DNA of 64,000 bases from an uncultured Alphaproteobacteria bacterium (GTDB lineage: Bacteria; Pseudomonadota; Alphaproteobacteria; Sphingomonadales; Sphingomonadaceae): contig CAVZHP010000005.1 in the NCBI GenBank assembly GCA_963775115.1, positions 127,817-191,816 of the forward strand, in the 5' to 3' direction. The translations under genes were made by a program, and so were the position numbers. Within the stretch, counting starts at the first letter, position 1. The number at the start of each line of letters is the position of its first letter. The notes beneath the pieces were generated by a model. It did no database searches, was not told the DNA's origin, and worked only from the letters and a program-made list of their open reading frames with translations. Shown here piece after piece: positions 4,135 to 40,491 of the stretch.

Positions 4135-5436
4135 ATGGCCGAAGCAGGCGCCACGGTTGAGCCCGATTTCTTCAGCGATCCGGCGGTGATCGCCGATCCC
4201 TTCCCGTATCTTGACCTGATGCGCTCCAGATGCCCGGTGGCGAAGGAGCGGCGCCAGGGGGCCTTCATGGTCACCGGTTACGACGAGCTGGGCGAGCTAC
4301 TCACCGCCAAGGGCGATACTTTCTCTTCCTGCGTGTCGGTGCTGGGCCCGCTGCCGCCGCTGCCGTTCACGCCCGAGGGCAGCGACATCCACGCCCAGCT
4401 TGAGGAAGTGCGCGACAGCCTGCCATGGTCGGCCCATCTCGCCTGCATGGACGGGCAGAAGCACGCTCACAATCGCGCGATCCTCACCGCCCTGCTGACC
4501 TACAAGCGGCTCAAGCAGAACGAGGCGTACCTCGGCGGCCTCGCCGACCGGATGATCGACCGCTTCATCGCCGACGGGCGCTGCAATGTCGTGCCGCAAT
4601 ACGGCCATGCCATCACCACTTATGCGATTTCCGATTTGCTCGGCATTCCCGAGGAGCACCGCGCCCTGCTGCTCGAGCAGATCGGCGCGCCGCCAAGCCA
4701 GCTCACCGGCGAATCCGAGATGAAGGCCGGGCCCGATCCGCTGATCGGCATGAAGGAGCTGTTCGACAGTTATTTCACCGAACGGCTGGATCGCCCGCAC
4801 GACGATCTGATGACCGAACTGTCGCAATCGAAATACCCCGATGGCTCGCCGATCCCGTTCGAGGCGATGTCGCTGCTCGCCCGCTTCCTGTTCGGCGCCG
4901 GGCAGGACACCACCTCGCACCTGATTTCCATGGCGACCCGCATTCTGGCCGAGCGGCCCGAACTGCAACAGCACCTTCGCGCAAATCCGGACCGGATTCC
5001 CGACTTCATCGAGGAAGTGCTGCGCTTCGATGCGCCGGTCAAGGTCGGGTACCGGCTGGCACTGAGCGACACCGAGGTTGCCGGAGTGCCGGTGCCCGCC
5101 GGCAGCGTGCTCACTGCCTGCCTCACTGGCGCCAACCGCGATCCCCGGCATTTCGACGATCCCGATGAGTTCGATATCGACCGCCCCAACAAGCGCGACC
5201 ACATGGCCTTCAGCCGCGGCGTCCACGCCTGCCCCGGCGCGCCGCTCGCCCGCATGGAATCGCGCATCGCCATCGAGCGGATTCTCGCGCGCACCAGCGA
5301 GTTCCACCCGGCGGAGGAACACCACGGCCCGGCGGACAACCGCCACTACCGCTTCGTGCCGACCTACAGCTTCCGCAGCCTGGCGGACCTGCACATCGAA
5401 TTCACCCCGGCCGGAATGCAGGAGCACCAACTATGA
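4135..5436 (+). CDS. Cytochrome P450
   Basis: AGQDTT I-helix, EVLR (ExxR) and FSRGVHACPG heme-ligand motif. Confidence 0.95.
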   Translation: MAEAGATVEPDFFSDPAVIADPFPYLDLMRSRCPVAKERRQGAFMVTGYDELGELLTAKGDTFSSCVSVLGPLPPLPFTPEGSDIHAQLEEVRDSLPWSAHLACMDGQKHAHNRAILTALLTYKRLKQNEAYLGGLADRMIDRFIADGRCNVVPQYGHAITTYAISDLLGIPEEHRALLLEQIGAPPSQLTGESEMKAGPDPLIGMKELFDSYFTERLDRPHDDLMTELSQSKYPDGSPIPFEAMSLLARFLFGAGQDTTSHLISMATRILAERPELQQHLRANPDRIPDFIEEVLRFDAPVKVGYRLALSDTEVAGVPVPAGSVLTACLTGANRDPRHFDDPDEFDIDRPNKRDHMAFSRGVHACPGAPLARMESRIAIERILARTSEFHPAEEHHGPADNRHYRFVPTYSFRSLADLHIEFTPAGMQEHQL

Positions 5437-5927
5437 GCGACGGCAAAGTTACCATGACCGAAGTTGAACGGGCGACGCTCGAATTCGTCACACGCCACCG
5501 CGATTCCTACCTTTCCTCGGGCGGACGCGAGGGCCATGTGCTGGACTACCGCCATCTCGGCGGCCACCGCTTCACCACCACGCTGCTGGTCGAGAACTTC
5601 GGCCGCAAGACCGGCGAGCGGCGGATCACTCCGCTGATCTATGGCGACACCAATGGCGAAGTCGCGATCGTCGCGTCCAAGGGCGGGGCGGATGTCCATC
5701 CCGGCTGGTATCACAATGTGCTGGCCTCACAGGAAGTGACGATCCAGATCGCCGGGCAGGCCTTCCGTTGCAGCTGGCGCGAACTGCTCGGCGCGGAGCG
5801 GGAAGCGGTCTGGGAATTCATGGCCCAGCTCTACCCGCCCTATCGCGATTATCAGGCGGCGACCGAACGGCAAATCCCGATCGTGGTGTTCCAGCCGGGC
5901 GACGAGGTTGAGGCATTGAAAGCCTGA
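5433..5927 (+). CDS. Deazaflavin-dependent nitroreductase family (DDN/FDOR-like) protein
   Basis: GRKTGERRITPL, VASKGG..HPGWYHN, YRDYQ..TERQIP; ATGA overlap with the P450. Confidence 0.85.
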   Translation: MSDGKVTMTEVERATLEFVTRHRDSYLSSGGREGHVLDYRHLGGHRFTTTLLVENFGRKTGERRITPLIYGDTNGEVAIVASKGGADVHPGWYHNVLASQEVTIQIAGQAFRCSWRELLGAEREAVWEFMAQLYPPYRDYQAATERQIPIVVFQPGDEVEALKA

Positions 5928-5928
5928 G

Positions 5929-6702
5929 TTACCACCCCCGCATCGGTGAATCCGCTTCCTCGACGCAGAACACCGGATTGTCGTGGCTGGCGAACAGCTG
6001 TTCCTCGTCCTCGTAAATCAGCTTGTCCATGCCGGTCTCGCCGAGCCGCACAAGCGCTGCATCCCATTCGGCGCGGGAGTTCCACCAGATTTCGGTGACG
6101 ACATCGAACGGCAGTTCGATCGCCTCAAGCGTGATCGGATTGCGTTCGGGCTGGACATAGCGGCGGACATAGCGCCGCGCTCCGGTCAGGGCCTTCTCGC
6201 CGAGCACGCGGTGATTGCTTTCGTAGTAGTCGCGGAACGCCTCCACGCTCATGCCGGGTTTGCGCTTGAGCAGGAACACCAGCTTGAGCATGTCCCCATC
6301 GCCCGTCGCCTTGCGGATGCCGCCTGCCGCGGGCGGATCGGTGAAGCCGGCCATCGCGGATTCGCATTCATCGACCGAGAATACCGGATTGTCATGGCTG
6401 GCGAAGATCTTCTCCTCGTCCGCGTAAATACGCTGAAAGGCGTCGCCCTCGCCCAGCGAGGCCATCACCGCCTCGAAGGCCTCGCGCGAATCCCACCACA
6501 ATTCCATCAGGCAATCGAACGGGACGCTGTAGGCCTCGCCCATCATCGGATTGATCTCGGGCTGCACGAAACGCCGGACATAGCGCCGCGCCTGCGGCAT
6601 CATCCCCGCGAGCAATGGCGCATGCGCGTTCTCGTAATAGAGCTTGAACTCGTCCATCGACATGCCGGGCCGGCGGGTGAGCAAGCAGACCTGTTTGAAC
6701 AT
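5929..6702 (-). CDS. Tandem two-domain EthD protein
   Basis: Two similar halves (LLTRRPGMSMDEFKLYYE / LLKRKPGMSVEAFRDYYE; DEEKIFASHDNPVF / DEEQLFASHDNPVF). Confidence 0.8.
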   Translation of the reverse strand: MFKQVCLLTRRPGMSMDEFKLYYENAHAPLLAGMMPQARRYVRRFVQPEINPMMGEAYSVPFDCLMELWWDSREAFEAVMASLGEGDAFQRIYADEEKIFASHDNPVFSVDECESAMAGFTDPPAAGGIRKATGDGDMLKLVFLLKRKPGMSVEAFRDYYESNHRVLGEKALTGARRYVRRYVQPERNPITLEAIELPFDVVTEIWWNSRAEWDAALVRLGETGMDKLIYEDEEQLFASHDNPVFCVEEADSPMRGW

Positions 6703-6817
6703 GGGTTCCCTCCTCGATCCTCTCCGGCAAGGCTAACCGCCCGGACCGCTCTTGGAAACGGCAAGATTTGTTGCGCCAGCCCTTAAATTCCGCGTCAAGT
6801 CGACGTTAACCATGGTC

Positions 6818-7966
6818 ATGACCGCACACGATCCCAATCTCGCCCGTGAACAGCGAGGCATTCTGCGCTGGCTCGGCTTCGGCGGTCAGGCGCAAATGGA
6901 CACCGCTGGCCAGAGCGACAGCGCCGAGAGCGATGCGCAGCTCGATCCGCGCGAGCGGCGGCGGCGGCAGCTCCTGAGCGATGTCGGCAGCTTCCTTCTG
7001 ACGCACCGGCTGGAGGTCAATCCCTATACCTTGGCTATCGCTCACGACGTCATCACCGGCGCGGACCAGCGGCTGGCCCGGCTGATCGAGGCGCGGGTGG
7101 CATCGCGCCAGCCGGTCAGCCTCGAATGGCTGGAAGAGTCCGGGCGCAACACCGGTTCGGACGGCTCGACGCAGCTCAATGCGCTGATGACCAGGCTCGA
7201 TACCAGCCTCGAGGAATTCGCCAGGACCGCCATGAGCGCACGGTCGGCGACCAGCGAATACAACTCTGCCCTCGAAGCCCATGTCGACGAACTGACCCAG
7301 GTCAGCAAGGCCGGCGTGGTCATTTCCGAGCTGGCGACCATCGCCAAGGTCATGCTCGAGCGCACCCGTGAGATCGAGCAGGAGATGAGCCGCAGCGAAA
7401 TGCAGACCCGAACGCTGCAATCCAGTCTCGATGAAGCCCGCCGCAAGGCCGAGATCGACCACCTGACTGGACTTCCGAACCGCCAGGCCTTCGAAAGTGT
7501 CCTGGAAAAAGAGCTGAAGATCGCCAAGGAATCCGGCGAACCGCTGTGCGTCGCCTTTGTCGACATCGATCATTTCAAGAAGATCAACGACACCCATGGC
7601 CACGATGCCGGCGACCGGGTGCTCAAGGTGGTGGCCCAGACACTGGCGAAAATCTCAGGGGACACCTGCCATGTCGCCCGTCACGGCGGCGAGGAATTCG
7701 TTGCGCTGCTGCGCGGCAAGTCGCTGGAAGAGGCTTGGAAGGTGCTCGACGGCGCCCGCGAGTCGCTTGGCGAACGCCGCCTGGTCAACCGCGCCACCGA
7801 CATCCCCTTCGGCAAGATCACCTTTTCCGGCGGCATCGCCGATGTCTTCGCCTACCCCGATCAACGTAGGGCGTTGAAAGCAGCGGACGAGGCGCTCTAT
7901 GCCGCCAAGGCGGCCGGCCGGGATCGCATCGGATTTGCGGGCGGAAAATCGGCAGCTGCGGCCTGA
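6818..7966 (+). CDS. Diguanylate cyclase (GGDEF)
   Basis: DHLTGLPNR, DIDHFKKINDTHGH and RHGGEEF motifs; start codon uncertain (6812 or 6818). Confidence 0.9.
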   Translation: MTAHDPNLAREQRGILRWLGFGGQAQMDTAGQSDSAESDAQLDPRERRRRQLLSDVGSFLLTHRLEVNPYTLAIAHDVITGADQRLARLIEARVASRQPVSLEWLEESGRNTGSDGSTQLNALMTRLDTSLEEFARTAMSARSATSEYNSALEAHVDELTQVSKAGVVISELATIAKVMLERTREIEQEMSRSEMQTRTLQSSLDEARRKAEIDHLTGLPNRQAFESVLEKELKIAKESGEPLCVAFVDIDHFKKINDTHGHDAGDRVLKVVAQTLAKISGDTCHVARHGGEEFVALLRGKSLEEAWKVLDGARESLGERRLVNRATDIPFGKITFSGGIADVFAYPDQRRALKAADEALYAAKAAGRDRIGFAGGKSAAAA

Positions 7967-8031
7967 TCCGCTACCATTTGCAGTCGCATTGCCCTACCCT
8001 CTTCAGGCAACACGTTCCGGGAGAGTTCGAC

Positions 8032-8553
8032 ATGCCTTTTTCACTCTATCACGCCTCGGTCGGGGCCTATCTGCAAATCCTGCCCGCGATAGCCGGCCTG
8101 ATCGACAAGGCCGAAGCCCATTGCCGGGAAAACAGCCTTGCCGCCGAGGTGCTGACCGGCGCTAGCCTCGCGCCCGATATGTGGCCCTTTGCCAAGCAGG
8201 TCTTCGAATGTGCACACCATTCCTCGCGGGCGATCGAAGGCCTGCGTGCCGGGACCTTTGGTCCCGAAATGGCTCCGGCACCGCTCGATTTTGCCTCGCT
8301 GAAAGCGGAAATCGCTCAGGCCATCGCCATGCTCGGCGACGTCGATCCCGCCGAGATCGACGGCATGATCGGCCGCGACATGCGCTTCGAATTCGGCGAG
8401 ATGCGGATGGATTTCACCGTCGAGGACTTTCTCCTCACATTCTCGCTGCCCAATTTCTTCTTCCACGCAACCTCGGCCTACGGAGTGCTGCGTAACCAGG
8501 GCCTTAAGGTCGGCAAACTCGATTATCTGGGGAAGTTGCGGCTGAAGAAGTAG
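8032..8553 (+). CDS. DUF1993 family protein
   Basis: LAPDMWPF..QV and LPNFFFHAT.AYGVLR..G..VGK.DYLG. Confidence 0.85.
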   Translation: MPFSLYHASVGAYLQILPAIAGLIDKAEAHCRENSLAAEVLTGASLAPDMWPFAKQVFECAHHSSRAIEGLRAGTFGPEMAPAPLDFASLKAEIAQAIAMLGDVDPAEIDGMIGRDMRFEFGEMRMDFTVEDFLLTFSLPNFFFHATSAYGVLRNQGLKVGKLDYLGKLRLKK

Positions 8554-8560
8554 CCGGAAT

Positions 8561-8854
8561 TCACGTTGCGACCACAGTTACCTTCCGGCGCTCGGCAATG
8601 TCGCCTTCGCCCCATGGCCGGCGCAACTCGCAGGTAAACCGGTGGGTGCCCGGTTTGTGCACGGCCAGCCGGTATGCCAGAACCGCCCCGCCGCCGACGC
8701 CTGCGTCCAGGTGCTGTTCCGGCTCACCGAGCAGGTCCAGCGCCGGGGGCAGTTGGCCAATCGACCAGACATAACCTCCGACGCCCTGGCGCTCGAGCCG
8801 CAGGGAGACCGTCGCGCCGGCAGCGGCTGCAAGCTCTGCAGTGCTTTCGATCAT
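8561..8854 (-). CDS. Chagasin-like protease inhibitor (family I42)
   Basis: GGY.W, GVGG and RRPW loop motifs; 97 aa; directly downstream of a C1 protease. Confidence 0.7.
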   Translation of the reverse strand: MIESTAELAAAAGATVSLRLERQGVGGYVWSIGQLPPALDLLGEPEQHLDAGVGGGAVLAYRLAVHKPGTHRFTCELRRPWGEGDIAERRKVTVVAT

Positions 8855-8878
8855 GACGGTCTCCCTTTGGTTACGGCG

Positions 8879-10561
8879 TCAGGCGAACCACTTGTGGTAC
8901 ATGTGGCTATCGGCGCCCATCACGAATGTGTCGAGCCGCTTGGGCGCCCATGACGAAACGCCGACGCCCGATCCCAGCACCCCGCCAAGATCTTCCTCGC
9001 CGCTCCAGTTGGAGCCGTCCCACCATTTGTGCCACATATGGTAGTTCTGACCCGGATAGAAAACATCGATCCGGTTCGGACCCCAGCTTTCCGCTGCCGG
9101 TGCATCGGTCAACACGCCGCCAAGCGCTTCCCAGCTGCTCCAGGCGCTGCCATTCCACCATTTGTGCCACAACTGACTGTCGAGCCCGCGGGCAAAGCAG
9201 TCCAGCCGGTTGGCGCTCCATGAGCAAACTGCGGGAGCCGAGGATATCGAGCCGCCGAGGCTTTCCCAACCGCGCCAGGCCGACCCGTCCCACCACAGGT
9301 GCCACATCGCGTTGTCGCCACCGCGGGCGAACACGTCGATCCGGTTGGGACCCCAGGACACCGCCGCCGGCTCCGACGTGAGGAAGCCGCCCAGGCTCTC
9401 CCAGCCGGACCAGCCGCCCTGGAACCATTTATGGAACAGCCGGTGATCGAGCCCGATACCGAACAGGTCGAGCCTGCCGCTGCCCCACGACGAGACCGCC
9501 GGCGCGCCGTGGATCAGTCCGCCGAGACTCTCCCACCCGCGCCACGCCGATCCGTCCCACCAGCGGTGCCACACCGCCGAATCGAGACCCCGGGCAAAGG
9601 CGTCGATGCGGTTGGAGCCCCATGAGGTCGCCGTCGGACGCGAAGTGATGATGCCGCCAAGATCTTCCCAGCCCGACCAGTTCCCGCTTGGCAGCTTGAC
9701 TCCGGTGGCCCAATGGAAGGGATAGGTCGTATCGATCCCGCATTGGCCATAGGCGATGCGGAAATAGCCGCCATCGCCCCAGCCGGGGCCCCAGCTGTTC
9801 TTGCATATCCAGCACTGGTCGGCCTCGGAGTAACCGATCACCAGCACACAATGCAGTCCGGCGAGAGCGCCGCTGACATGGCGATAGATGCCGCTGCCAT
9901 AGGCAAAGAAGTCGTTGTAAACCTCAAGCACCGCCGAACAGGGGCCAACATTGGTGAGGTGGTTCTTGCGGTCGGCCGCGCTGGACAGCGCTCCGAAGCT
10001 GGTGATCTTCACCGCTATCGCATTGCGATTGGGAACATTCTTGCAGACCGGCGCGCCGCCCGCGCCGGTGAAGGCCGACGCATAGGGGAACGAAGCCTCG
10101 TCAATGATGCCCCGGCTCTGCAATTGGCCAAGCGCATCCGCCGGCCACCAGCCGTTGCAGTTGGCGCCGTGATTGGAGCAGAAATGCAGATCGGCTTCTG
10201 ACAGATCGAGCCGCTGGCCCTTCTCGATCGAAGCCATCGATTCCGTCAGGCCCGACGCGCAGAAGCTCACGCAGGATCCGCATCCGCCCTGATCCTTGGG
10301 CGGAGTGACATGGTTGCCATTGCGATTGCGCCAATCGACCGCAAGAGCAAAACCCGGCGCTGCCGGGGCCGCGCCCGGAGCCAGCACCGCGGGCTTTGCC
10401 GCGGCGATTTCCTGGGCCAGCCTTGCGCTGTCCACCGCCACGCCAAGCATGCGCTTTCGCGCATTGTCGTCGAGCTGGGTAATGGCGTTGGCCCGGGCGC
10501 GCCAGCCCGCCTGATTTGACGTGATCTTGGCCTGGACGTCGGCAATATCGAACTGGGGCAT
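8879..10561 (-). CDS. Papain-family (C1) cysteine peptidase fused to a six-repeat Trp-rich lectin-like beta-propeller
   Basis: DWR..., [26 protein letters not shown]; six W.GWE.LGG...P.(A)VSW...R.D.F repeats. Confidence 0.85.
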
Positions 10562-33037: not shown

Positions 33038-33409
33038 ACTGTCCCAAAACGGGGAATTCACGCATTCCGTTAGCTAACGAGTGGCGGTCTAACTGTGCTG
33101 GCGCGGGCTACCGGCCCGGCCTGGATTTCATAATTGCACGCGGACTGCCAGCCGAAAATTAGCGCGTATGGCCGGGTATCCCGCCAGCGCGCGAGGCCCT
33201 GTGCATCTGCTTGACGTGCAAACCGAAACTGCCCTGCGGGACTTATCCCCTTGGAAATTTGGGGCCGCATGACAATTCTCAATTACACTCCGCCCCCCTC
33301 CAAATACCCTTCGAATCGTTCGCAGTCGTGCGGACAGATGCGGCGATCTCGTGCCCTGCCGTGGGGTGTGGCTGTGCTTTCGCCATCGAATTAGCAACAG
33401 GAGTTAGAC

Positions 33410-34552
33410 ATGAAACTCAAGGCCATTCTCACCGCTACGGTATGCGCCGCTGGACTGACAGTCTCGGCTGCCGCGTTCGCCCAAGGGTCGAACGGAAACG
33501 ACAAGAACGACGACAACGAGGGCACCGTCATCGGCAGCCAGGGCACCAACAACATTGACGACGGCAATCAGTCCACCTCCGGCGCCATCAGCACCATCGA
33601 CGACGGCAACCTGACCGGCACCGGCGACATTGCCACCAGTGACGACGATATCAAGAACGACGACGGCAACCAGACCGGCACCGGCGACATCGCCACCAGT
33701 GACGACGACATCAAGAACGACGACGGCAACCAGACCGGCACAGGCGACATCGCCACCGCCTCTTACAAAAACGATGACGGCAATCAGGCCGGCGGCGACA
33801 TCGCCACCACTGACGACGATACCACCATCAAGAATGACGATGGCAACCAGGCCGCTGGCGACCTCGCGGTCAACGACGACGGCAATCAGGCCGGAGACGA
33901 CGTCACCACCATCAAGAATGACGACGGCAATGCGGCCGGCGACGACGTCAACACCTACAAGAACGACGACGGCAACCAGGCTGCCGGCAACATCAGCACC
34001 GCCAAGAACGGCGACGGCAACCAGGCTGGCGGCGACATCAGCACCGCCTCTTACAAGAACGACGACGGCAACCAGGCTGGCAACGACATCACCACCAGTG
34101 ACGACGACATCAAGAACGATGACGGCAATCTCGCCACTGGCGGCAGCATCACCACCAGTGACGACGACATCAAGAACGATGACGGCAATCTCGCCACCGG
34201 CGGCAGCATCACCACCACCGAGAACAAGAACGGCAGCGGCAACCTCGCCACTGGCGGCAGCATCACGGACGACGATGTTATTGCCACGCAGACTCTCAAG
34301 GCAGTGATCACCAACGGTGCCGCAGTCGGGACCTTCGCAGGCTTGGGTGCCTATAACAGCGGTAGCAACTCGGTCGAAGGCAATGCCTTCTCCGCCTATG
34401 CCGGCATCCTGACGCAGGCCTGGAACACCGGCATCAATGCCAATGTCCAGGCTGGCACCAACATCGCCGCGACCGGTGCGGTCAACTTCAACGGCGTCAA
34501 CAATCCGGCGCCTGCTGCGCCTGCTGCGCCTGCTGCGCCTGCCGCTCAGTAA
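33410..34552 (+). CDS. Secreted acidic DDGN-repeat protein with a C-terminal Fap-type repeat; putative amyloid/fibre major subunit
   Basis: Signal peptide; 12 exact DDGN plus 2 variant repeats; C-terminal GNAFSAYAGILTQAWNTGINANVQAGTNIAA. Confidence 0.7.
   Translation: MKLKAILTATVCAAGLTVSAAAFAQGSNGNDKNDDNEGTVIGSQGTNNIDDGNQSTSGAISTIDDGNLTGTGDIATSDDDIKNDDGNQTGTGDIATSDDDIKNDDGNQTGTGDIATASYKNDDGNQAGGDIATTDDDTTIKNDDGNQAAGDLAVNDDGNQAGDDVTTIKNDDGNAAGDDVNTYKNDDGNQAAGNISTAKNGDGNQAGGDISTASYKNDDGNQAGNDITTSDDDIKNDDGNLATGGSITTSDDDIKNDDGNLATGGSITTTENKNGSGNLATGGSITDDDVIATQTLKAVITNGAAVGTFAGLGAYNSGSNSVEGNAFSAYAGILTQAWNTGINANVQAGTNIAATGAVNFNGVNNPAPAAPAAPAAPAAQ
33617..34260 (+). repeat. Intragenic tandem repeats, including near-identical 60-bp units
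   Basis: GGCACCGGCGACAT..CCACCAGTGACGACGA.ATCAAGAACGACGACGGCAACCAGACC repeated; ACCACCAGTGACGACGACATCAAGAACGATGACGGCAATCTCGCCAC.GGCGGCAGCATC repeated. Confidence 0.9.
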
Positions 34553-34571: not shown

Positions 34572-34606
34572 TTGCTCCGGACCGGAACCGCTCCGGTCCG
34601 GAGCAA
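34572..34606 (+). terminator. Perfect 15-bp stem-loop after the repeat-protein gene (attenuator or mRNA stabiliser)
   Basis: TTGCTCCGGACCGGA-ACCGC-TCCGGTCCGGAGCAA; no strong U-tract. Confidence 0.7.
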
Positions 34607-34652: not shown

Positions 34653-35090
34653 ATGTCTGCTTTCAACACTTCCCTGTCGATAGTCCTGGCGTGTGGCTGC
34701 ATGACCATTGCGGACTTGGCCATGGCCGTTGAACTGACGCCTCCCGAGGTGCCAGTCACCGAAGCGCCCGCCGAAGTGTCGGCCTCACCGGCAGCCTCGC
34801 AAGATCCGGCGCCAAAGCTCGAACCTGCGCTCGATTCTCCTGATGGAGCAGTGGTTCCGGATACGGAGCTTGTTCTGAACAGGGGCCGCGAAAAGCTTGT
34901 CGTGGCCAACCAGAGCATGACGGCAGTCACCGCCGGCAACGAACTCACCGGCGGCTACACCGCCGGGAATGTCGAAATTTCCGATAACGCGCTCGCGAAC
35001 TTCACCGGGTTCGGCAACATTCTCATCAATACCGGCGCGCAGGTGAGCTTGCAGTCCGGGATGAATGTGACGCTGAATCTCGGCGAATAA
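34653..35090 (+). CDS. Secreted FapB-like minor subunit / nucleator candidate
   Basis: Signal-like N-terminus; C-terminal GNVEISDNALANFTGFGNILINTGAQVSLQ resembles the Fap repeat. Confidence 0.6.
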   Translation: MSAFNTSLSIVLACGCMTIADLAMAVELTPPEVPVTEAPAEVSASPAASQDPAPKLEPALDSPDGAVVPDTELVLNRGREKLVVANQSMTAVTAGNELTGGYTAGNVEISDNALANFTGFGNILINTGAQVSLQSGMNVTLNLGE

Positions 35091-35099
35091 GATCGCACA

Positions 35100-35873
35100 A
35101 TGGCTTCCACACCCCGCCCGATCCAGCACCGCATGCCGCGAATTGCAGCAATTCTCGCAGGTGCTCTCGGCACCTTGGCGGCCCTTACCGCTCCGGCATC
35201 CGCCGAAGTTCGCATCGGCGGCGATCCGGGCGGTTATTACAGCGTGCCGGTGATGACTTGGTGGGACATTCCCTTCCGCAGCATCGTTCGCCAGCGTTAC
35301 GATTTCAGCTGCGGATCGGCGGCGGTCGCCACCCTATTGACCTTCCACTACGGCCAACGCACCGCCGAGAGCAATGCCTTCACGGCAATGTGGGAAAAGG
35401 GCGAACAGGCGACAATCCAGCAATTCGGCTTTTCCATGTTCGACATGAAGACCTACCTGAATGACATCGGCTATCGTGCAGAAGGTTTCAGGATGTCGAT
35501 CGCCCAGCTGCGCCAGTCGAAGCGGCCGGTAATCGCCATGATCGAGGTGCGCGGTTACAAGCATTTCGTGGTGGTGAAAGGCGTGCGCGACGACAAAGTC
35601 CTGACCGGCGATCCGGCACTCGGCCTCAAGGAATATGACATCGCGGATTTTGCCAAGGCGTGGAACGGCATTGGGCTGGCCATCCTCGACAGCCCTGGCA
35701 AGGTTGAGCCGCTATACAATCTCGCCAGTGACTGGGGCCCATGGTCGCGCGCACCGGTTGAGGAACAGAGCGGGCTTCAAGGTGCCGTTGGCGACCTCAC
35801 CACTTACCTGCCACCGGCCTATCAGATTACGCCGCAGCTCCTGCTCGATGTCCGGGTGGGGACGGTGAATTGA
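35100..35873 (+). CDS. C39 family peptidase, FapD-like
   Basis: RQRYDFSCGSAAVATLL, GFSMFDMK, YKHFVVVKG, DPALG; signal peptide; no ABC domain. Confidence 0.9.
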   Translation: MASTPRPIQHRMPRIAAILAGALGTLAALTAPASAEVRIGGDPGGYYSVPVMTWWDIPFRSIVRQRYDFSCGSAAVATLLTFHYGQRTAESNAFTAMWEKGEQATIQQFGFSMFDMKTYLNDIGYRAEGFRMSIAQLRQSKRPVIAMIEVRGYKHFVVVKGVRDDKVLTGDPALGLKEYDIADFAKAWNGIGLAILDSPGKVEPLYNLASDWGPWSRAPVEEQSGLQGAVGDLTTYLPPAYQITPQLLLDVRVGTVN

Positions 35874-35874
35874 C

Positions 35875-37242
35875 GTGGCGGCGCTGACATCATCGCTGGG
35901 ATTTGCCCTGGCGGCGGCGATTTCACCCAATTCCGCACTGTCCGAAGCCGATCGCCCGCCAAACGTCGAATCGACGGCAGCGATGGCCCGCCTTGAAGAC
36001 ATGCCTGAAGCCGAATTTGGCCAGGCTGCCTCCTCAGATGCGCCGGTGTCGCTGTTGGCGGATGCCGGCCTGCCCGATACACTTTACGCATCCGTCGATA
36101 CAGCGCCGAGCCTGGAGGGCGAACTCGCCGCACCAGTATCCCTGCTGGCGGATGCGGGGCTGCCCGAAGCGCTTTATGCCTCTGCGGATACAGAGGCTGA
36201 ACTGGCGCGCGAGGCTACCGCGCCAATATCGCTGCTTGCGGATGCCGGCCTGCCCGAAGCTCAGTATAGCTCCGCTGGCACAGAACCGGAGCTGGTGGTT
36301 GAAGCCACCGCGCCAATATCGCTGCTTGCGGATGCCGGCCTGCCCGAAGCTCAGTATAGCTCCGCTGGCACAGAACCGGAGCTGGTGGTTGAAGCCACCG
36401 CACCGGTCTCGCTGCTGGCGGATGCGGGGCTGCCCGAAGTGCAAATTGCCTCCACCGATAAATGGCGGGAGCAGGAGGACGAGACTGCCGCGTCGGCTTT
36501 GTCGCTGAGAGATTCCGGTCCGGTCGCATTCCGCGATGTTCGCGCGGAAGCGATACCGGTCCCGGCATTCGGCGCCGCTCCGCCGCCATTGCCCTGGAAC
36601 GACGACAGGTCGGACCGATCGCCGGTTGCCATTCCGCAAGTCGCCTTTGGTCGCAGGAACGAAACTCCGGCTCCCGAGCGTTCCGAGCCGGAAGCAAAGG
36701 CATCGGGCCCAGCCAGGCCAAAGGAATTGGCAGCATTCGTGCAGGACGACGAACAGTTCGGAGAACTCGTCGCGGTCGGAGACGAGGAACTGTCGGGCCA
36801 ACGCGGCGGTTTTGCTCTGGCGGGGATGAACATAAATTTCGGCGCTGAGCTGCGCAGCTATATCGACGGCGAAATGGTGCTGATGACGCGGCTCAGCTGG
36901 ATGGATGATTCGGTTACCAAGACCCAGCTGGTCTCGCCCGGTCTGACTCCGGCCATGGCATTGAACGGTGTGGTGTCGAGCGGCCAGATTCGCCTGCCCG
37001 CCGGGAATCTCGACACATTTCAGGCCAACAATGGCGGCACAGTGATCGCGCATGGAGTCGAACAGGGGCTGCGCAGCGTAATCATCAACACAGCTAACGG
37101 AGTACAACTGGCAACCGAAGCCGACGTCTCGCTGGACGTGGCGGGCTATTCCGCCTTCCGCGAACAGGTTATGCAGATGCGTATCAACGACGTCCTGGGC
37201 ACTGCGGTATCGAATGCGACGCGCGACGCACTTGGGACCTGA
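35875..37242 (+). CDS. FapE-like protein with five 30-aa N-terminal repeats
   Basis: VGDEELSGQRGGF motif; AP(V/I)SLLADAGLP repeats. Confidence 0.6.
   Translation: MAALTSSLGFALAAAISPNSALSEADRPPNVESTAAMARLEDMPEAEFGQAASSDAPVSLLADAGLPDTLYASVDTAPSLEGELAAPVSLLADAGLPEALYASADTEAELAREATAPISLLADAGLPEAQYSSAGTEPELVVEATAPISLLADAGLPEAQYSSAGTEPELVVEATAPVSLLADAGLPEVQIASTDKWREQEDETAASALSLRDSGPVAFRDVRAEAIPVPAFGAAPPPLPWNDDRSDRSPVAIPQVAFGRRNETPAPERSEPEAKASGPARPKELAAFVQDDEQFGELVAVGDEELSGQRGGFALAGMNINFGAELRSYIDGEMVLMTRLSWMDDSVTKTQLVSPGLTPAMALNGVVSSGQIRLPAGNLDTFQANNGGTVIAHGVEQGLRSVIINTANGVQLATEADVSLDVAGYSAFREQVMQMRINDVLGTAVSNATRDALGT
36217..36401 (+). repeat. Perfect 90-bp tandem duplication within the FapE-like gene
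   Basis: 36217-36306 is identical to 36307-36396. Confidence 0.9.
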
Positions 37243-37659
37243 AGTTCCGGTTAGCTAATTTTTCTGGACACAAGTCTCTGTATTTGCGCCAAAAATCCTG
37301 CTTCACCCGAGGTTTCGGATCAGTCCGGGACGCCTATCGAACGATAATCTTGTTGCAATCCTTAGTTGGATGGCATTGGATGGCACCGGTCGTCAATAAA
37401 GCGATTCGTCTGAGCAGCCCATGATTCCGGCCTGCCTGCGAATCCGAATTAACTTACAAGTTCAGAGCGAGTGGCTCAGTGGATTCACAACATCCGCTAA
37501 GCTATTGCTTGTGTTTGAGATTTTTATTACCACAAGCAGCGCTCAAAAGTTACTTCAAGACATCCAACATAAGGGTGCAGGTCGTCTATAATACTTTGTG
37601 GTTCGCAATTATTATTACAATGTGATGCCATTTTTAAGACAACCAGGGGTGAAGTGACA

Positions 37660-38382
37660 ATGTCGATGGTGTTCCCACATGAGCAGATCGTAAGAGGCTC
37701 GGGCGGATCGATGGTGCAGCTTGAGAAGGGCGCCTTGCTCTACGATCAGGACACTCCGGCCAATTGCTGGTACGAAATCGTGTCCGGCATCGTCAGGACC
37801 TGCCGCATACTAAGAGATGGACGACGTCAGGTCACCGGCTTCCATTTTCCTGGCGATGTCTTCGGATTCGATGGTCCCAACCACAAGACTTCGGCCGAAG
37901 CCGTCACCGATGGCGCCACGGTCCTCGACTATTCAGGCGGCGGAACGGCCGCGCAGCCTGCAATACGTGAAAGCGCCATTGTCGGCCTGCAGCGCGCGCT
38001 GGATTGCGCGGAGGGCAGCATCAGGCTGCTGGGACATCGCTCGGCGCCCGAACGGCTGGCTGCATTTCTGCTCATGCTGCGGTCGAAACTGGAACTGGGT
38101 TCGCATTTCGTAATGCCTATGCCGCGTACCGATATCGCCGACTTCCTGGGTCTGACCGTAGAAACCGTAAGCCGTACCCTGACAGATTTCGCCCGCAAGC
38201 GACTGATCGTATTCGAAACGCCCCAACAGCTGCTTGTCGAGGATTGGGCCAGATTGCGCGATGTTGCCGGCGACGATGAGGATAGCCTGGTGACCGCATC
38301 GTGCTATTCCCGGCGGCTTGAGTTGCTGTCACCTGACGGGAACAGGGCCGGACAGAAGATTCAATTAGAGCTGCAAGGCTAA
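37660..38382 (+). CDS. Crp/Fnr (FixK-like) transcriptional regulator
   Basis: GRRQVTGFHFPGD.FG, ERLAAFLL, MPRTDIADFLGLTVETVSR HTH; no N-terminal Cys cluster. Confidence 0.9.
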   Translation: MSMVFPHEQIVRGSGGSMVQLEKGALLYDQDTPANCWYEIVSGIVRTCRILRDGRRQVTGFHFPGDVFGFDGPNHKTSAEAVTDGATVLDYSGGGTAAQPAIRESAIVGLQRALDCAEGSIRLLGHRSAPERLAAFLLMLRSKLELGSHFVMPMPRTDIADFLGLTVETVSRTLTDFARKRLIVFETPQQLLVEDWARLRDVAGDDEDSLVTASCYSRRLELLSPDGNRAGQKIQLELQG

Positions 38383-38400
38383 GCACCGGGAGGATAGGCC

Positions 38401-40491
38401 ATGGTCAGCACTCAGGATGGCGGCATCGCCGCCTTCATAGCTTGTGCCTCGGCAATCGCAGGGCAGGCAACGCCGAACGACGAGTTGATCCACAAATTCG
38501 GGCTCGACTCGCCGGTCCCGCCGTTCGCGGATTCGGACCTGACCGCAGCTCCTTATGTGCTGCCGGAAGTCGAGATCGGACAAGGCTATGCATCCGCCAT
38601 GCCGGTTCCGATGTTTGCCGCTGCCGGCACGAAAAATACGCACTATCTGCCATCTGCGGCCGGAACGGACCTGGCGCCAGATTTCGCGCCTTTAGCCAAG
38701 CCGCTGACGCACCAGAGTCAGGCGAAAGCCCAGGCTTCGCAACCGGAAATCGAACCCAGCCTGAACTACGCCCCTGCCATTCCGGCCCCGCAGTTTGCCG
38801 ATTCCGGGCTGCTGGATCCGCTGGACGCACTTGTAGCAGACGTGCCAAGCCCGCTTTACGCTCCGGTGACGCCGGTTTTGCCGGTCATGGCAACCGGAAC
38901 GCCAGGCCCGATGGCGGCACTGCCCGATGCTCCCGAGCGCCAGGATTATGCGCCAGGCAAGCCTGTCTCGCTGTTTGCCGATGCCGGCTTGTCCGATATG
39001 CTTTATGCCCCCGCCGAAGCCACGGCGGGTTCCGGTGCCGAACCGGTATCTCCTCTCATGCCGCATGCGTCCGGCAACCTGATCGATGTTCGCGAAGCCA
39101 TTCCGGCACCAGCGCAGGGCAGCAGCTTCAAACTGCCCCTCCCCGTCCCGGCCCAGGCAGACGTCGGCATGGCCGAGCCTTCGGAGGACCAGGCAGCGGC
39201 ATCGCCAGGTCAGACCATGCCGCGAACAGATCCCGGACAGCAGGCGATCCTGGACCGGCTGAACCGGCTTGAGGAGCAACTGCAATCGCAAAGAGTGCAG
39301 TTGTCCGAGCAGGCCGGGATCATTTCCAGTCAGCAGAAAGAAATCGAGGCGTTGCGCCAGCAGGGGGCAAACGATGCCGCGCTTGCTGTTCGCGCCCGGG
39401 GCACCGGCAATATGGTTCAGCCGCTTTTTGGCATGCAGGCTGCGACAGCGCCCGCAACCTCCGCAGCACCTGCAGCGCTTGCGCCGGTAACCGCTTCAGG
39501 CAGGCCCGCAATGCCCCCGCAACCTGTTGGCGAAGCGCCGGCGGAAGCCGAGCCCAGGGTTGAGCGAGTTGTTACCGCCGTGCCCGAAGGCCTGGGCGTG
39601 CTGACGCCAAAAGGCCGCTTTGTCTACGATCCTTCATTCGAATACTCGCGGTCCTCGACCAACCGGCTGGTATTCCGGGGCTTCGAGCTGATCCCGGGCA
39701 TTCAGATCGGCGTAATCGAAGCAACCGATGCGGATCGCGACACGCTCGCGCACACGTCCACGCTGCGCTACGGACTGACCAACAGGCTGGAAATCGAAGC
39801 CAGAGTGCCGGTGTTGTACCGGCATGACAGGATCGAGGTTGTGCAACAGCGCGATCAGGGCATTGTCCGTTCGATCGAACTGAGCGAAGGCAACATAGGC
39901 GATGCTGAATTTGCCATCCGCTATCAACTTAACCGGCCAAAGGGCGCGCAACAGCCGATTTTCGTCGGCAGTGTCAGAGTCAAGAGCGACACCGGAAAAG
40001 GGCCCTTCGATGTCGGCTACGATACATTCGGGGTGGCCACAGGTCTGGCGACCGGTTCCGGATTCTGGGCGGTGCAGCCCGGACTGAACTTCCTGCTGCC
40101 TAGCGATCCTGCGGTGATCTATGGATCCGCGTCCTATGTCTATCATATCCCGCGGAACGTGAACCGCATCATTGGCGGCGCTTTCGTTGGCAGGGTCGAT
40201 CCGGGCGATGCGGTCAGCGCCAGTCTCGGTTTCGGTTTTGCCCTCAACCCCCGCTTCTCATTTTCGCTCGGCTACGGACACACTTATATTTTCCCGAGCA
40301 AACAAGAGATCGGCGGAACCTTGCAGCGCTCGAAGTCGCTTCAGGTCGGCAGTTTCAACTTCGGAATGTCCTATCGGCTCAGTCAGAAGCAGACGATGAA
40401 TGCCTCGTTCGAACTCGGGGCGACGTCGGATGCGCCGGACATGAGTTTTACACTTCGCTTCCCGTTCTCGTTTGGCGGCGGCGGCCGCTAG
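38401..40491 (+). CDS. FapF-like outer-membrane beta-barrel secretion channel with a long Pro/Ala-rich N-extension and coiled coil
   Basis: VPVLYR, IGDAEFAIRY, VRVKSDTGKGPF, TGSGFWAVQPG, DPAVIYGS, FALN, G.TSDAPD..F.L.FP follow the FapF motif order as recalled; coiled coil LDRLNRLEEQLQSQ. Confidence 0.85.
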   Translation: MVSTQDGGIAAFIACASAIAGQATPNDELIHKFGLDSPVPPFADSDLTAAPYVLPEVEIGQGYASAMPVPMFAAAGTKNTHYLPSAAGTDLAPDFAPLAKPLTHQSQAKAQASQPEIEPSLNYAPAIPAPQFADSGLLDPLDALVADVPSPLYAPVTPVLPVMATGTPGPMAALPDAPERQDYAPGKPVSLFADAGLSDMLYAPAEATAGSGAEPVSPLMPHASGNLIDVREAIPAPAQGSSFKLPLPVPAQADVGMAEPSEDQAAASPGQTMPRTDPGQQAILDRLNRLEEQLQSQRVQLSEQAGIISSQQKEIEALRQQGANDAALAVRARGTGNMVQPLFGMQAATAPATSAAPAALAPVTASGRPAMPPQPVGEAPAEAEPRVERVVTAVPEGLGVLTPKGRFVYDPSFEYSRSSTNRLVFRGFELIPGIQIGVIEATDADRDTLAHTSTLRYGLTNRLEIEARVPVLYRHDRIEVVQQRDQGIVRSIELSEGNIGDAEFAIRYQLNRPKGAQQPIFVGSVRVKSDTGKGPFDVGYDTFGVATGLATGSGFWAVQPGLNFLLPSDPAVIYGSASYVYHIPRNVNRIIGGAFVGRVDPGDAVSASLGFGFALNPRFSFSLGYGHTYIFPSKQEIGGTLQRSKSLQVGSFNFGMSYRLSQKQTMNASFELGATSDAPDMSFTLRFPFSFGGGGR

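Follow-up and report, generated by a model that had tools for sequence, protein, structure and literature searches.

The window analysed here is a stretch of 64,000 nucleotides from the genome assembly of an uncultured alphaproteobacterium of the family Sphingomonadaceae (GCA_963775115.1, contig CAVZHP010000005.1, positions 127,817 to 191,816 of the forward strand). It contains a gene for a protein referred to below as the large subunit, and this is the first gene of a cluster that also encodes homologues, all of them distant, of FapD, FapE and FapF of the Pseudomonas Fap system (Table 1). The open reading frame (ORF) encodes a genuine secreted, strongly acidic repeat protein, and it ends in a conserved module that is shared with a smaller paralogue encoded by the next gene.

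Table 1. Features of the large-subunit gene and of the surrounding cluster (positions are those of the window; HMM, hidden Markov model; aa, amino acids)
Feature	Position	Strand	Evidence or remark
Shine-Dalgarno sequence AGGAG, 6 nt upstream of the ATG	33399..33403	+	read from sequence
Large-subunit ORF, 380 aa	33410..34552	+	
Sec-type signal peptide, residues 1-24, predicted cleavage AFA/QG	33410..33481	+	sequence inspection
Start of the mature protein, residues 25-48, short, D/N/G-rich and outside the repeats	33482..33553	+	
Polyanionic variable region, 14 tandem units of 13-21 aa (12 DDGN, GDGN, GSGN)	33554..34273	+	
Family-defining C-terminal module, residues ~289-360	34274..34489	+	own HMM, E=8.4e-19; alignments A2 and A4
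Low-complexity PAA tail (NGVNNPAPAAPAAPAAPAAQ) and stop	34490..34552	+	Gly-rich acidic tails here in relatives
15-bp GC-rich hairpin just past the stop; candidate attenuator, terminator or mRNA stabilizer	34572..34606	+	region -45.8 kcal/mol, z -4.8
Small paralogous subunit, 145 aa, module at extreme C-terminus	34653..35090	+	own HMM, E=1.6e-21
FapD-like periplasmic C39 cysteine peptidase	35100..35873	+	PF03412, 6e-19; NF058616 (FapD), 3.4e-44
FapE-like protein, 455 aa, five SLLADAGLP-type 30-aa repeats, motif DEELSGQRGGF	35875..37242	+	
Crp/FNR (FixK-like) regulator, within the cluster	37654..38382	+	
FapF-like outer-membrane channel, 696 aa	38401..40491	+	NF058560 (FapF), 2.5e-43

By inspection, the N-terminus of the large subunit has the features of a Sec-type signal peptide (MKLKAILTATVCAAGLTVSAAAFA, with QG following the cleavage site). 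Residues 49-288 form the tandem array, in which the unit core NDDGNQxGGDIxT is followed by a variable spacer (SDDDIK, ASYK or TIK); the two variants of the DDGN motif are GDGN at residue 201 and GSGN at residue 275. Approximately 0.16 DDGN motifs would be expected from the amino-acid frequencies of the protein, compared with the 12 observed. Genome-wide, this is the sole ORF with more than one DDGN, and it holds the most Asp-rich 100-aa stretch. The most abundant residues are D (15.0%), G (14.5%), A (14.2%), N (12.6%) and T (11.6%), and the mature protein has an isoelectric point of ~4.05 and a net charge of ~-47. At the DNA level, Tandem Repeats Finder detects 60-bp units (96% at 33598-33757 and 88% at 34087-34266). 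Units 2 and 3 are identical at 56 of 60 bases, and no exact direct repeat exceeds the 51 bp that recur at 34087 and 34147; these duplications indicate that part of the array is recent. The same program resolves the PAA tail into 3.9 copies of the 9-bp repeat GCGCCTGCT. The anatomy given in the original prediction, which was made from the sequence alone and described a signal peptide, 12 exact and two variant DDGN repeats, a PAA tail, near-identical 60-bp duplications from recent expansion and strong acidity, is borne out in each of these respects. A promoter scan found no sigma-70 promoter upstream of the gene. A possible FNR/FixK box at 33269-33282 (one mismatch) was set aside, as the 21 such sites in the whole window are not clearly above the chance number of 13.8 +/- 3.2.

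The C-terminal module, approximately 65 aa in length, defines a family. One full-length copy occupies residues 290-354 of the large subunit, which also carries the C-terminal motif GNAFSAYAGILTQAWNTGINANVQAG described in the original prediction. Related loci were collected by scanning genome contigs with an alignment of FapF-like proteins. This gave 332 loci, of which the best 80 are nearly all from Sphingomonadales and Caulobacterales, with a few labelled to phylum only; they include Sphingopyxis, Parasphingorhabdus, Sphingomonas, Croceibacterium, Novosphingobium, Asticcacaulis, Brevundimonas and Phenylobacterium. In four relatives, paired secreted proteins with similar C-termini are encoded upstream of or beside the FapF-like gene. 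An HMM was derived from nine C-termini and refined by iteration over every ORF in the related loci. It detects the module at 76 of the 81 loci, nearly always in exactly two genes, one large and one small, each with a single C-terminal copy. In the genome to which the window belongs, the module occurs in these two proteins only. A profile search of 1.84 billion representative proteins, with clusters counted at 50% identity, retrieved 609 clusters at E<=1e-3, of which 295 also pass E<=1e-10. Amongst the best 150 clusters, 149 have a single matched stretch, and the proteins are mostly 110-290 aa in length.

Residues Q294, G318, G332, T340, G341 and Q347 are invariant, and N339 nearly so, in an alignment of 17 sequences (A2); invariance is kept at G318, G332 and G341 in a larger alignment of 62 sequences (A4). 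The module has a conserved motif Q...G...G...NTG...Q, to which the large subunit conforms, and the pattern G-x6-[NS]-x-G-x5-Q is present in 141 of 148 family members. The target, its C-terminus and the 17 module sequences have no meaningful match in Pfam or NCBIfam at E<=10, a profile search of the PDB with the module gave no match at the same threshold, and the small subunit as a whole has no Pfam or NCBIfam match. A word-based homologue search with the full-length protein was also empty, which is attributable to domination of the query by low-complexity words. When restricted to residues 288-372, the search found one relative, P0001, the closest known here. It is 58% identical over the module and has the same gene set, including the Crp-family regulator, with different repeats.

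Variation in this arrangement is seen in some loci. Two tandem large-type paralogues lie ahead of the small subunit in L107, L108, L110 and L111, which are metagenome and MAG (metagenome-assembled genome) contigs. In Sphingopyxis, the C-terminus of many large subunits is a Gly-rich acidic tail, which in some cases includes a CC pair (GECC...). In addition, FapE-like ORFs (for example, 16298-16891 in L038) consistently resemble the core of the module at scores below threshold (NGVQNMLINTAxG against HMM positions 37-49), and a single short beta segment may be common to the three putative substrates.

Gene order is conserved in the family. Of the related loci, 67 have two subunit genes in the same orientation, and the large gene leads in every one. 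Within 90 nt after its stop codon, 65 of the 67 have a strong GC-rich hairpin, in many cases with a T-run behind it. The cluster in the window shows the family arrangement, with the large subunit and its D/N-rich acidic region, the hairpin, the small subunit, the C39 peptidase and the FapE-like gene in that order. The best 50-nt folding energy of these hairpins has a median of -30.1 kcal/mol, compared with -18.8 kcal/mol for random windows from the same loci, 1.5% of which reach -30 kcal/mol or lower. A conserved attenuator or stabilizer between the first and second genes is the usual route to an excess of the major fibre subunit over the assembly genes. The leading position of the large gene and the hairpin that follows it fit a major subunit, which the hairpin would allow to be overproduced.

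Acidity also extends across the family. In the region between the signal peptide and the module, 83 large subunits have median contents of 18.8% D, 18.5% N, 0% E and 0% K+R, and a median net charge of -0.19 per residue, whereas the same region of 62 small subunits is Ala/Glu-rich (D 5.9%, N 2.1%). The median length of this region in large subunits is 56 aa, and it exceeds 100 aa in 18 of 83. At 264 aa, that of the present protein is the third longest, after those of Croceibacterium soli (351 aa, with DGSANNGS-type units) and a Caulobacteraceae MAG (266 aa). A D/N-rich acidic N-terminal region is the norm for large subunits, with the present protein as an expanded case; it was originally described as unusual, which holds for the length of the expansion, amongst the three longest, but not for the acidic region itself. 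The repeat units are unrelated between lineages and include (DNS)n, DGSANNGS, DDSYNTK, ADQDNDT, DLLSNNGNGDNRDN and DDNSDDDGxD. The only other genome of the same genus with the system (G015) has units of the form SGxGSANNGGTS. As the units are unrelated and their composition is consistently D/N-rich, selection appears to act on composition (Asp/Asn-rich, lacking Glu and basic residues) and not on sequence. This argues for a role in charge, hydration or cation binding, and against a specific fold common to the family. A metagenome scan for relatives with DDGN repeats gave no match that covered the array: matches mostly begin at residue 290 or 315, and the one reaching furthest back begins at residue 252, with 60% identity.

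The Fap-like setting assumed at the outset is supported by the FapD-like peptidase and the FapF-like channel, both of which are recognized with strong E-values (Table 1). Neither reaches the equivalog cut-off of the corresponding model, with 150.8 bits against a cut-off of 330 for NF058616 and 148.4 bits against 700 for NF058560. The FapF-like channel has a long N-terminal extension, a coiled-coil segment and a C-terminal barrel, and is 39-66% identical to its relatives in the 332 genome loci. FapF relatives in 401 genomes of the phylum fall into three score tiers, of ~765 (true FapF), ~355-392 and ~100-181 bits, and the protein in the window belongs to the lowest. The FapE-like protein is not matched by the curated FapE model at E<=10; comparison with Pseudomonas FapE by BLASTP gave E=0.008, and the only common stretch is D-E/Q-E-L-x3-R-G-x-F/Y...I-x-F-G.

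A 90-bp repeat in 4.3 copies (Tandem Repeats Finder), encoding AP[VI]SLLADAGLPE..., is present in the FapE-like gene at 36049-36439. Similar segments, SLFADAGL and QFADSGL, are found in the N-terminal extension of the FapF-like protein (window 38401-39300). The FapF-like proteins of relatives (424-464 aa) are without this long extension. A Crp-family gene also lies beside the FapF-like gene in the locus of the closest relative (L118, 11998-12693), and the clusters of other relatives are flanked by a sigma-54 activator (L006 and L007) or a LuxR-type gene (L009). G+C content is 0.535-0.56 around the regulator gene and the intergenic region preceding it (window 37000-38500), compared with 0.60-0.66 elsewhere. 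Of 24 other genomes in the genus, one has a FapF-like gene, as do 5 of 41 relatives. The absence of the whole cluster from 23 of the 24 genomes suggests that it was horizontally acquired.

Candidate processing sites are distributed unevenly amongst the putative substrates. A double-glycine-leader pattern, [LIVMF]x3[EDQ][LIVMF]x2[LIVMF]xG[GSA], is found in 42 of 63 small subunits and ends 3-5 residues before the module, as in MLNDNELETLRGG, which is followed by QS. In the FapE-like proteins of 28 loci there are sites of the type VSDEELNELRGG, followed by F. These include the site DEELSGQRGG/F in the window (residues 303-312; 36781-36810); L018, L029 and L033 are amongst the related loci with double-glycine sites. 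The small subunit of the window has a degenerate version (TELVLNRGR). In the small and FapE-like proteins, these are likely to be cleavage sites of the FapD-like C39 peptidase. The pattern occurs in only 2 of 85 large subunits, and the present protein has no match. In Pseudomonas, FapB and FapC are unprocessed and FapE loses its N-terminus (PMC5557850), while the substrate of FapD is still unidentified (PMC5557850, PMC6173800). As absence of the pattern mirrors this difference between unprocessed FapB/FapC and processed FapE, the large subunit is probably exported uncut except for its signal peptide.

The relationship of the subunits to FapB and FapC was assessed with models, a repeat pattern and profile alignment. 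Neither NF058558 (FapC) nor NF058557 (FapB) matches the large subunit at E<=10. As the control genomes hold no FapF, two operons from the search across the phylum served as positive controls. In L101, a true Pseudomonas-type fap operon, the FapC, FapB and FapE models score 403, 276 and 348 bits. In L102, a canonical operon of the middle FapF tier (372 bits) from the same taxonomic family as the window, they score 74, 59 and 80 bits (E-values of 1.6e-20, 6e-16 and 1.5e-22, respectively). These models match the controls and, at E<=10, none of the three putative substrates of the window. The export machine is homologous to that of Fap, but its subunits cannot be assigned to FapB, FapC or FapE. 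The published minimal Fap repeat, X15-G-X4-N-X3-G-X6-N-X7 (PMC3792158), has no match in the large or small subunit, and matches 2 of 148 sequences across the single-module family. As a control on true FapB and FapC, a relaxed form of the pattern ([NQ] at the first N) recovered 10 genuine repeats and one spurious one. When A2 was aligned by hhalign with 11 true Fap repeats (A3), the result was P=0.069 and a probability of 0.8%, with 27 aligned columns over AFSAYAG...NTG. Common ancestry of the module and the Fap repeat is therefore no more than plausible from these comparisons, and membership of the large subunit in the FapC family cannot be demonstrated on the sequences compared. The claim of one C-terminal Fap repeat stands insofar as there is a single conserved segment where FapC has three, but its identity as a Fap repeat does not. 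The protein was ruled out as a FapC orthologue, as both the FapC model and the minimal-repeat tests failed.

FapC nevertheless offers the closest parallel in several respects. Both proteins are Sec-exported and encoded beside a C39 peptidase, a FapE or FapE-like protein and a FapF or FapF-like channel (fapABCDEF in Pseudomonas). The large subunit has no double-glycine site, as would be expected for a counterpart of unprocessed FapC (PMC5557850), and both combine a conserved N/Q/G-rich beta segment with variable, lineage-specific regions that in FapC are thought to be surface-exposed (PMC3792158). FapC differs in having three or more G-x4-N-x3-G-x6-N repeats, compared with the one non-fitting module here, and in that its variable parts are linkers between repeats, whereas that of the large subunit is N-terminal to the module. 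A CxxC tail and fapA are both missing here, and the order of the subunit genes is large before small. By inspection, repeat 2 of FapB (ARITGNAFSNGSGALGVNQAAG...) can be placed without gaps against VEGNAFSAYAGILTQAWNTG of the module, with GNAFS and G-x8-G in common. This likeness has no statistical support (the hhalign result above, and no match to NF058557), and FapB has two or three repeats and no acidic repeat region. The L102 operon (G180:C1:1419000-1431000, 4610-10500) encodes a FapA-like protein, three-repeat FapB and FapC, FapD, FapE, an extra gene product and FapF. Its FapC ends in a Gly-rich acidic tail, as do many large subunits. The Fap models recognize its proteins, whereas in the window FapF reaches 148 bits and the subunits are not recognized; this marks the system in the window as a separate clade, more distant than that of L102. 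The Fap survey of 2013 reported only Beta-, Gamma- and Deltaproteobacteria (PMC3792158), and a full-text literature search for FapF and FapC together with Alphaproteobacteria gave no paper.

Other systems are less similar. The C39 and outer-membrane proteins of the window match FilB (7.1e-33) and FilC (6.5e-19) of the putative Fil pilus of Acinetobacter, but these matches are weaker than those to FapD and FapF, and no similarity between subunits was found. The Fil system is itself uncharacterized. The RTX beta-roll and the 19-aa-repeat beta-solenoid of the Marinomonas ice-binding protein are Ca2+-dependent folds of secreted Gly/Asp/Asn-rich short tandem repeats, in which acidity would keep the chain unfolded before export. 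The large subunit differs from these in lacking GGxGxDxUx, in its irregular unit length and in having no significant structural match. An analogy, and only that, can be drawn with the Ser-Asp stalks of the staphylococcal Sdr and Clf proteins, which are hydrophilic spacers of highly variable copy number. These also are low-complexity Asp-containing repeats, and relatives of the large subunit carry (DNS)n; the organisms, sortase anchoring and repeat chemistry are different.

We conclude with fair confidence that the protein is an exported subunit, the larger and probably the major one, of a divergent relative of the Fap system in alphaproteobacteria, and that it bears a polyanionic appendage. 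It would be exported by the Sec pathway with removal of its signal peptide, and would then pass, unfolded, across the outer membrane by way of the FapF-like channel, whose gene lies 4 kb downstream. The ~65-aa module, which is N/Q/G-rich, predicted to form a beta-hairpin and common to the small subunit, would be the working part, recognized by the machinery and/or stacking as a cross-beta fibre with one layer per subunit. The 240-residue Asp/Asn/Gly/Thr region would be a lineage-specific, fast-evolving appendage, grown by recent slippage or unequal recombination. This may coat the fibre or the cell surface, set surface charge and hydration, and probably bind cations; it may also keep the subunit unfolded and soluble before export. 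Several points weigh against this interpretation. A single module per subunit is unlike every characterized functional amyloid, which leaves fibre formation putative. The similarity of the module to Fap repeats, as judged by the alignments above, is not significant, and the scores of the FapD- and FapF-like proteins, far below the equivalog cut-offs, mean that substrate handling may differ. The presence of the system in only one of the 24 other genomes of the genus shows that it is accessory, and the hairpin would fit simple mRNA stabilization as well.

The original prediction saw the DDGN repeats differently, as a beta-solenoid that may bind Ca2+ or metals or nucleate mineral and that is carried on an amyloid scaffold; in a regular solenoid of this kind, each unit would supply one coil. 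The monomer was modelled with AlphaFold2 from a 62-row alignment covering the module only. In the longer units of 18-21 aa, at residues 63-141 and 200-273 (predicted local distance difference test score, pLDDT, 60-73), the model has a 3-residue strand at intervals of 6-7 residues, as a solenoid would, and each unit has two hydrophobic positions and abundant DG and NG turn-formers. The D/N skew, with almost no E, is also that of extracellular Ca2+-binding repeats, and the top rows of a Foldseek search of the PDB were an RTX lipase and a Ca2+-dependent beta-helical antifreeze protein. None of these rows is significant, however (E>5, probabilities 0.01-0.03). Mean pLDDT is 58.5 and the predicted template modelling score (pTM) 0.32, with the array as a whole at 43-73 and the hairpin of the module formed by strands 332-339 and 345-352. 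Unit length is uneven (13-21 aa), and in the middle of the array the short units of 13-15 aa (142-199) are predicted to be disordered (pLDDT 43-57). The C. soli homologue (L058), the longest expanded one sampled, is predicted to be unstructured (pLDDT 35.5, although from a single-sequence AlphaFold run), and the 3-aa DNS repeats of relatives are unable to form such coils. Five Ca2+ patterns (DxDxDG, [DN]x[DN]x[DN]G, the EF-hand loop, the RTX nonapeptide and a relaxed RTX form) have no match in the protein, and a protein of RTX or EF-hand type was ruled out on this basis. A regular solenoid is therefore doubtful; the predicted strands point weakly to a solenoid limited to part of the array. Binding of Ca2+, other metals or mineral may be inferred purely from charge and D/N bias. 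A tentative possibility, somewhat unlikely in our judgement, is that this protein is the major subunit of a hitherto undescribed third class of Fap-type fibre, with a single cross-beta layer per subunit and a hypervariable polyanionic Asp/Asn brush, for which contact with extracellular Ca2+ would be the sole trigger of folding or condensation. If so, the subunit would stay export-competent in the periplasm, the binding of cations or mineral by the matrix would be tunable, and the double-glycine sites of the partner proteins would identify the substrates of FapD-type peptidases.

It is also conceivable, but improbable, that the protein is not a fibre subunit at all but a soluble or surface-retained acidic protein (an adhesin, cation scavenger or matrix component), with the module as a secretion signal for the FapF-like/C39 machine. 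C-terminal secretion signals serve in other pathways. The module is single in each protein and always C-terminal, it has no significant similarity to amyloid repeats, and the FapE-like proteins carry only its short sub-threshold core, NGVQNMLINT. Moreover, co-located fapD and fapF homologues occur in other phyla without recognizable FapB or FapC, and their substrates are undescribed (2018 review; PMC6173800). Against this, the module is N/Q/G-rich and predicted to form a beta-hairpin, like amyloid repeats; the large and small paralogues mirror FapC/FapB and CsgA/CsgB; and 65 aa is long for a pure targeting tag. That the ORF is spurious, and merely a product of low-complexity repeat DNA, is scarcely credible. 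The DNA is indeed repetitive and has several long overlapping ORFs in other frames, but the ORF has a good ribosome-binding site and signal peptide, the module and synteny are conserved over 76 loci and 609 library clusters, and the gene order followed by the hairpin is also conserved.

The subunits and their loci represent a new and sizeable family, of 609 clusters and 332 FapF-like loci, which has no Pfam or NCBIfam model. If the subunits do not polymerize, the FapD/FapF machine would be a general exporter and not specific to amyloid. If they do, no dedicated functional amyloid known from bacteria would have a simpler design, and the double-glycine sites of the partner proteins would provide a direct handle on cutting by FapD-type peptidases. 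Sphingomonads and caulobacters are abundant in the environment, and such fibres, naturally decorated with charge, would be relevant to the biofilm matrices of these bacteria and to engineered amyloid materials.

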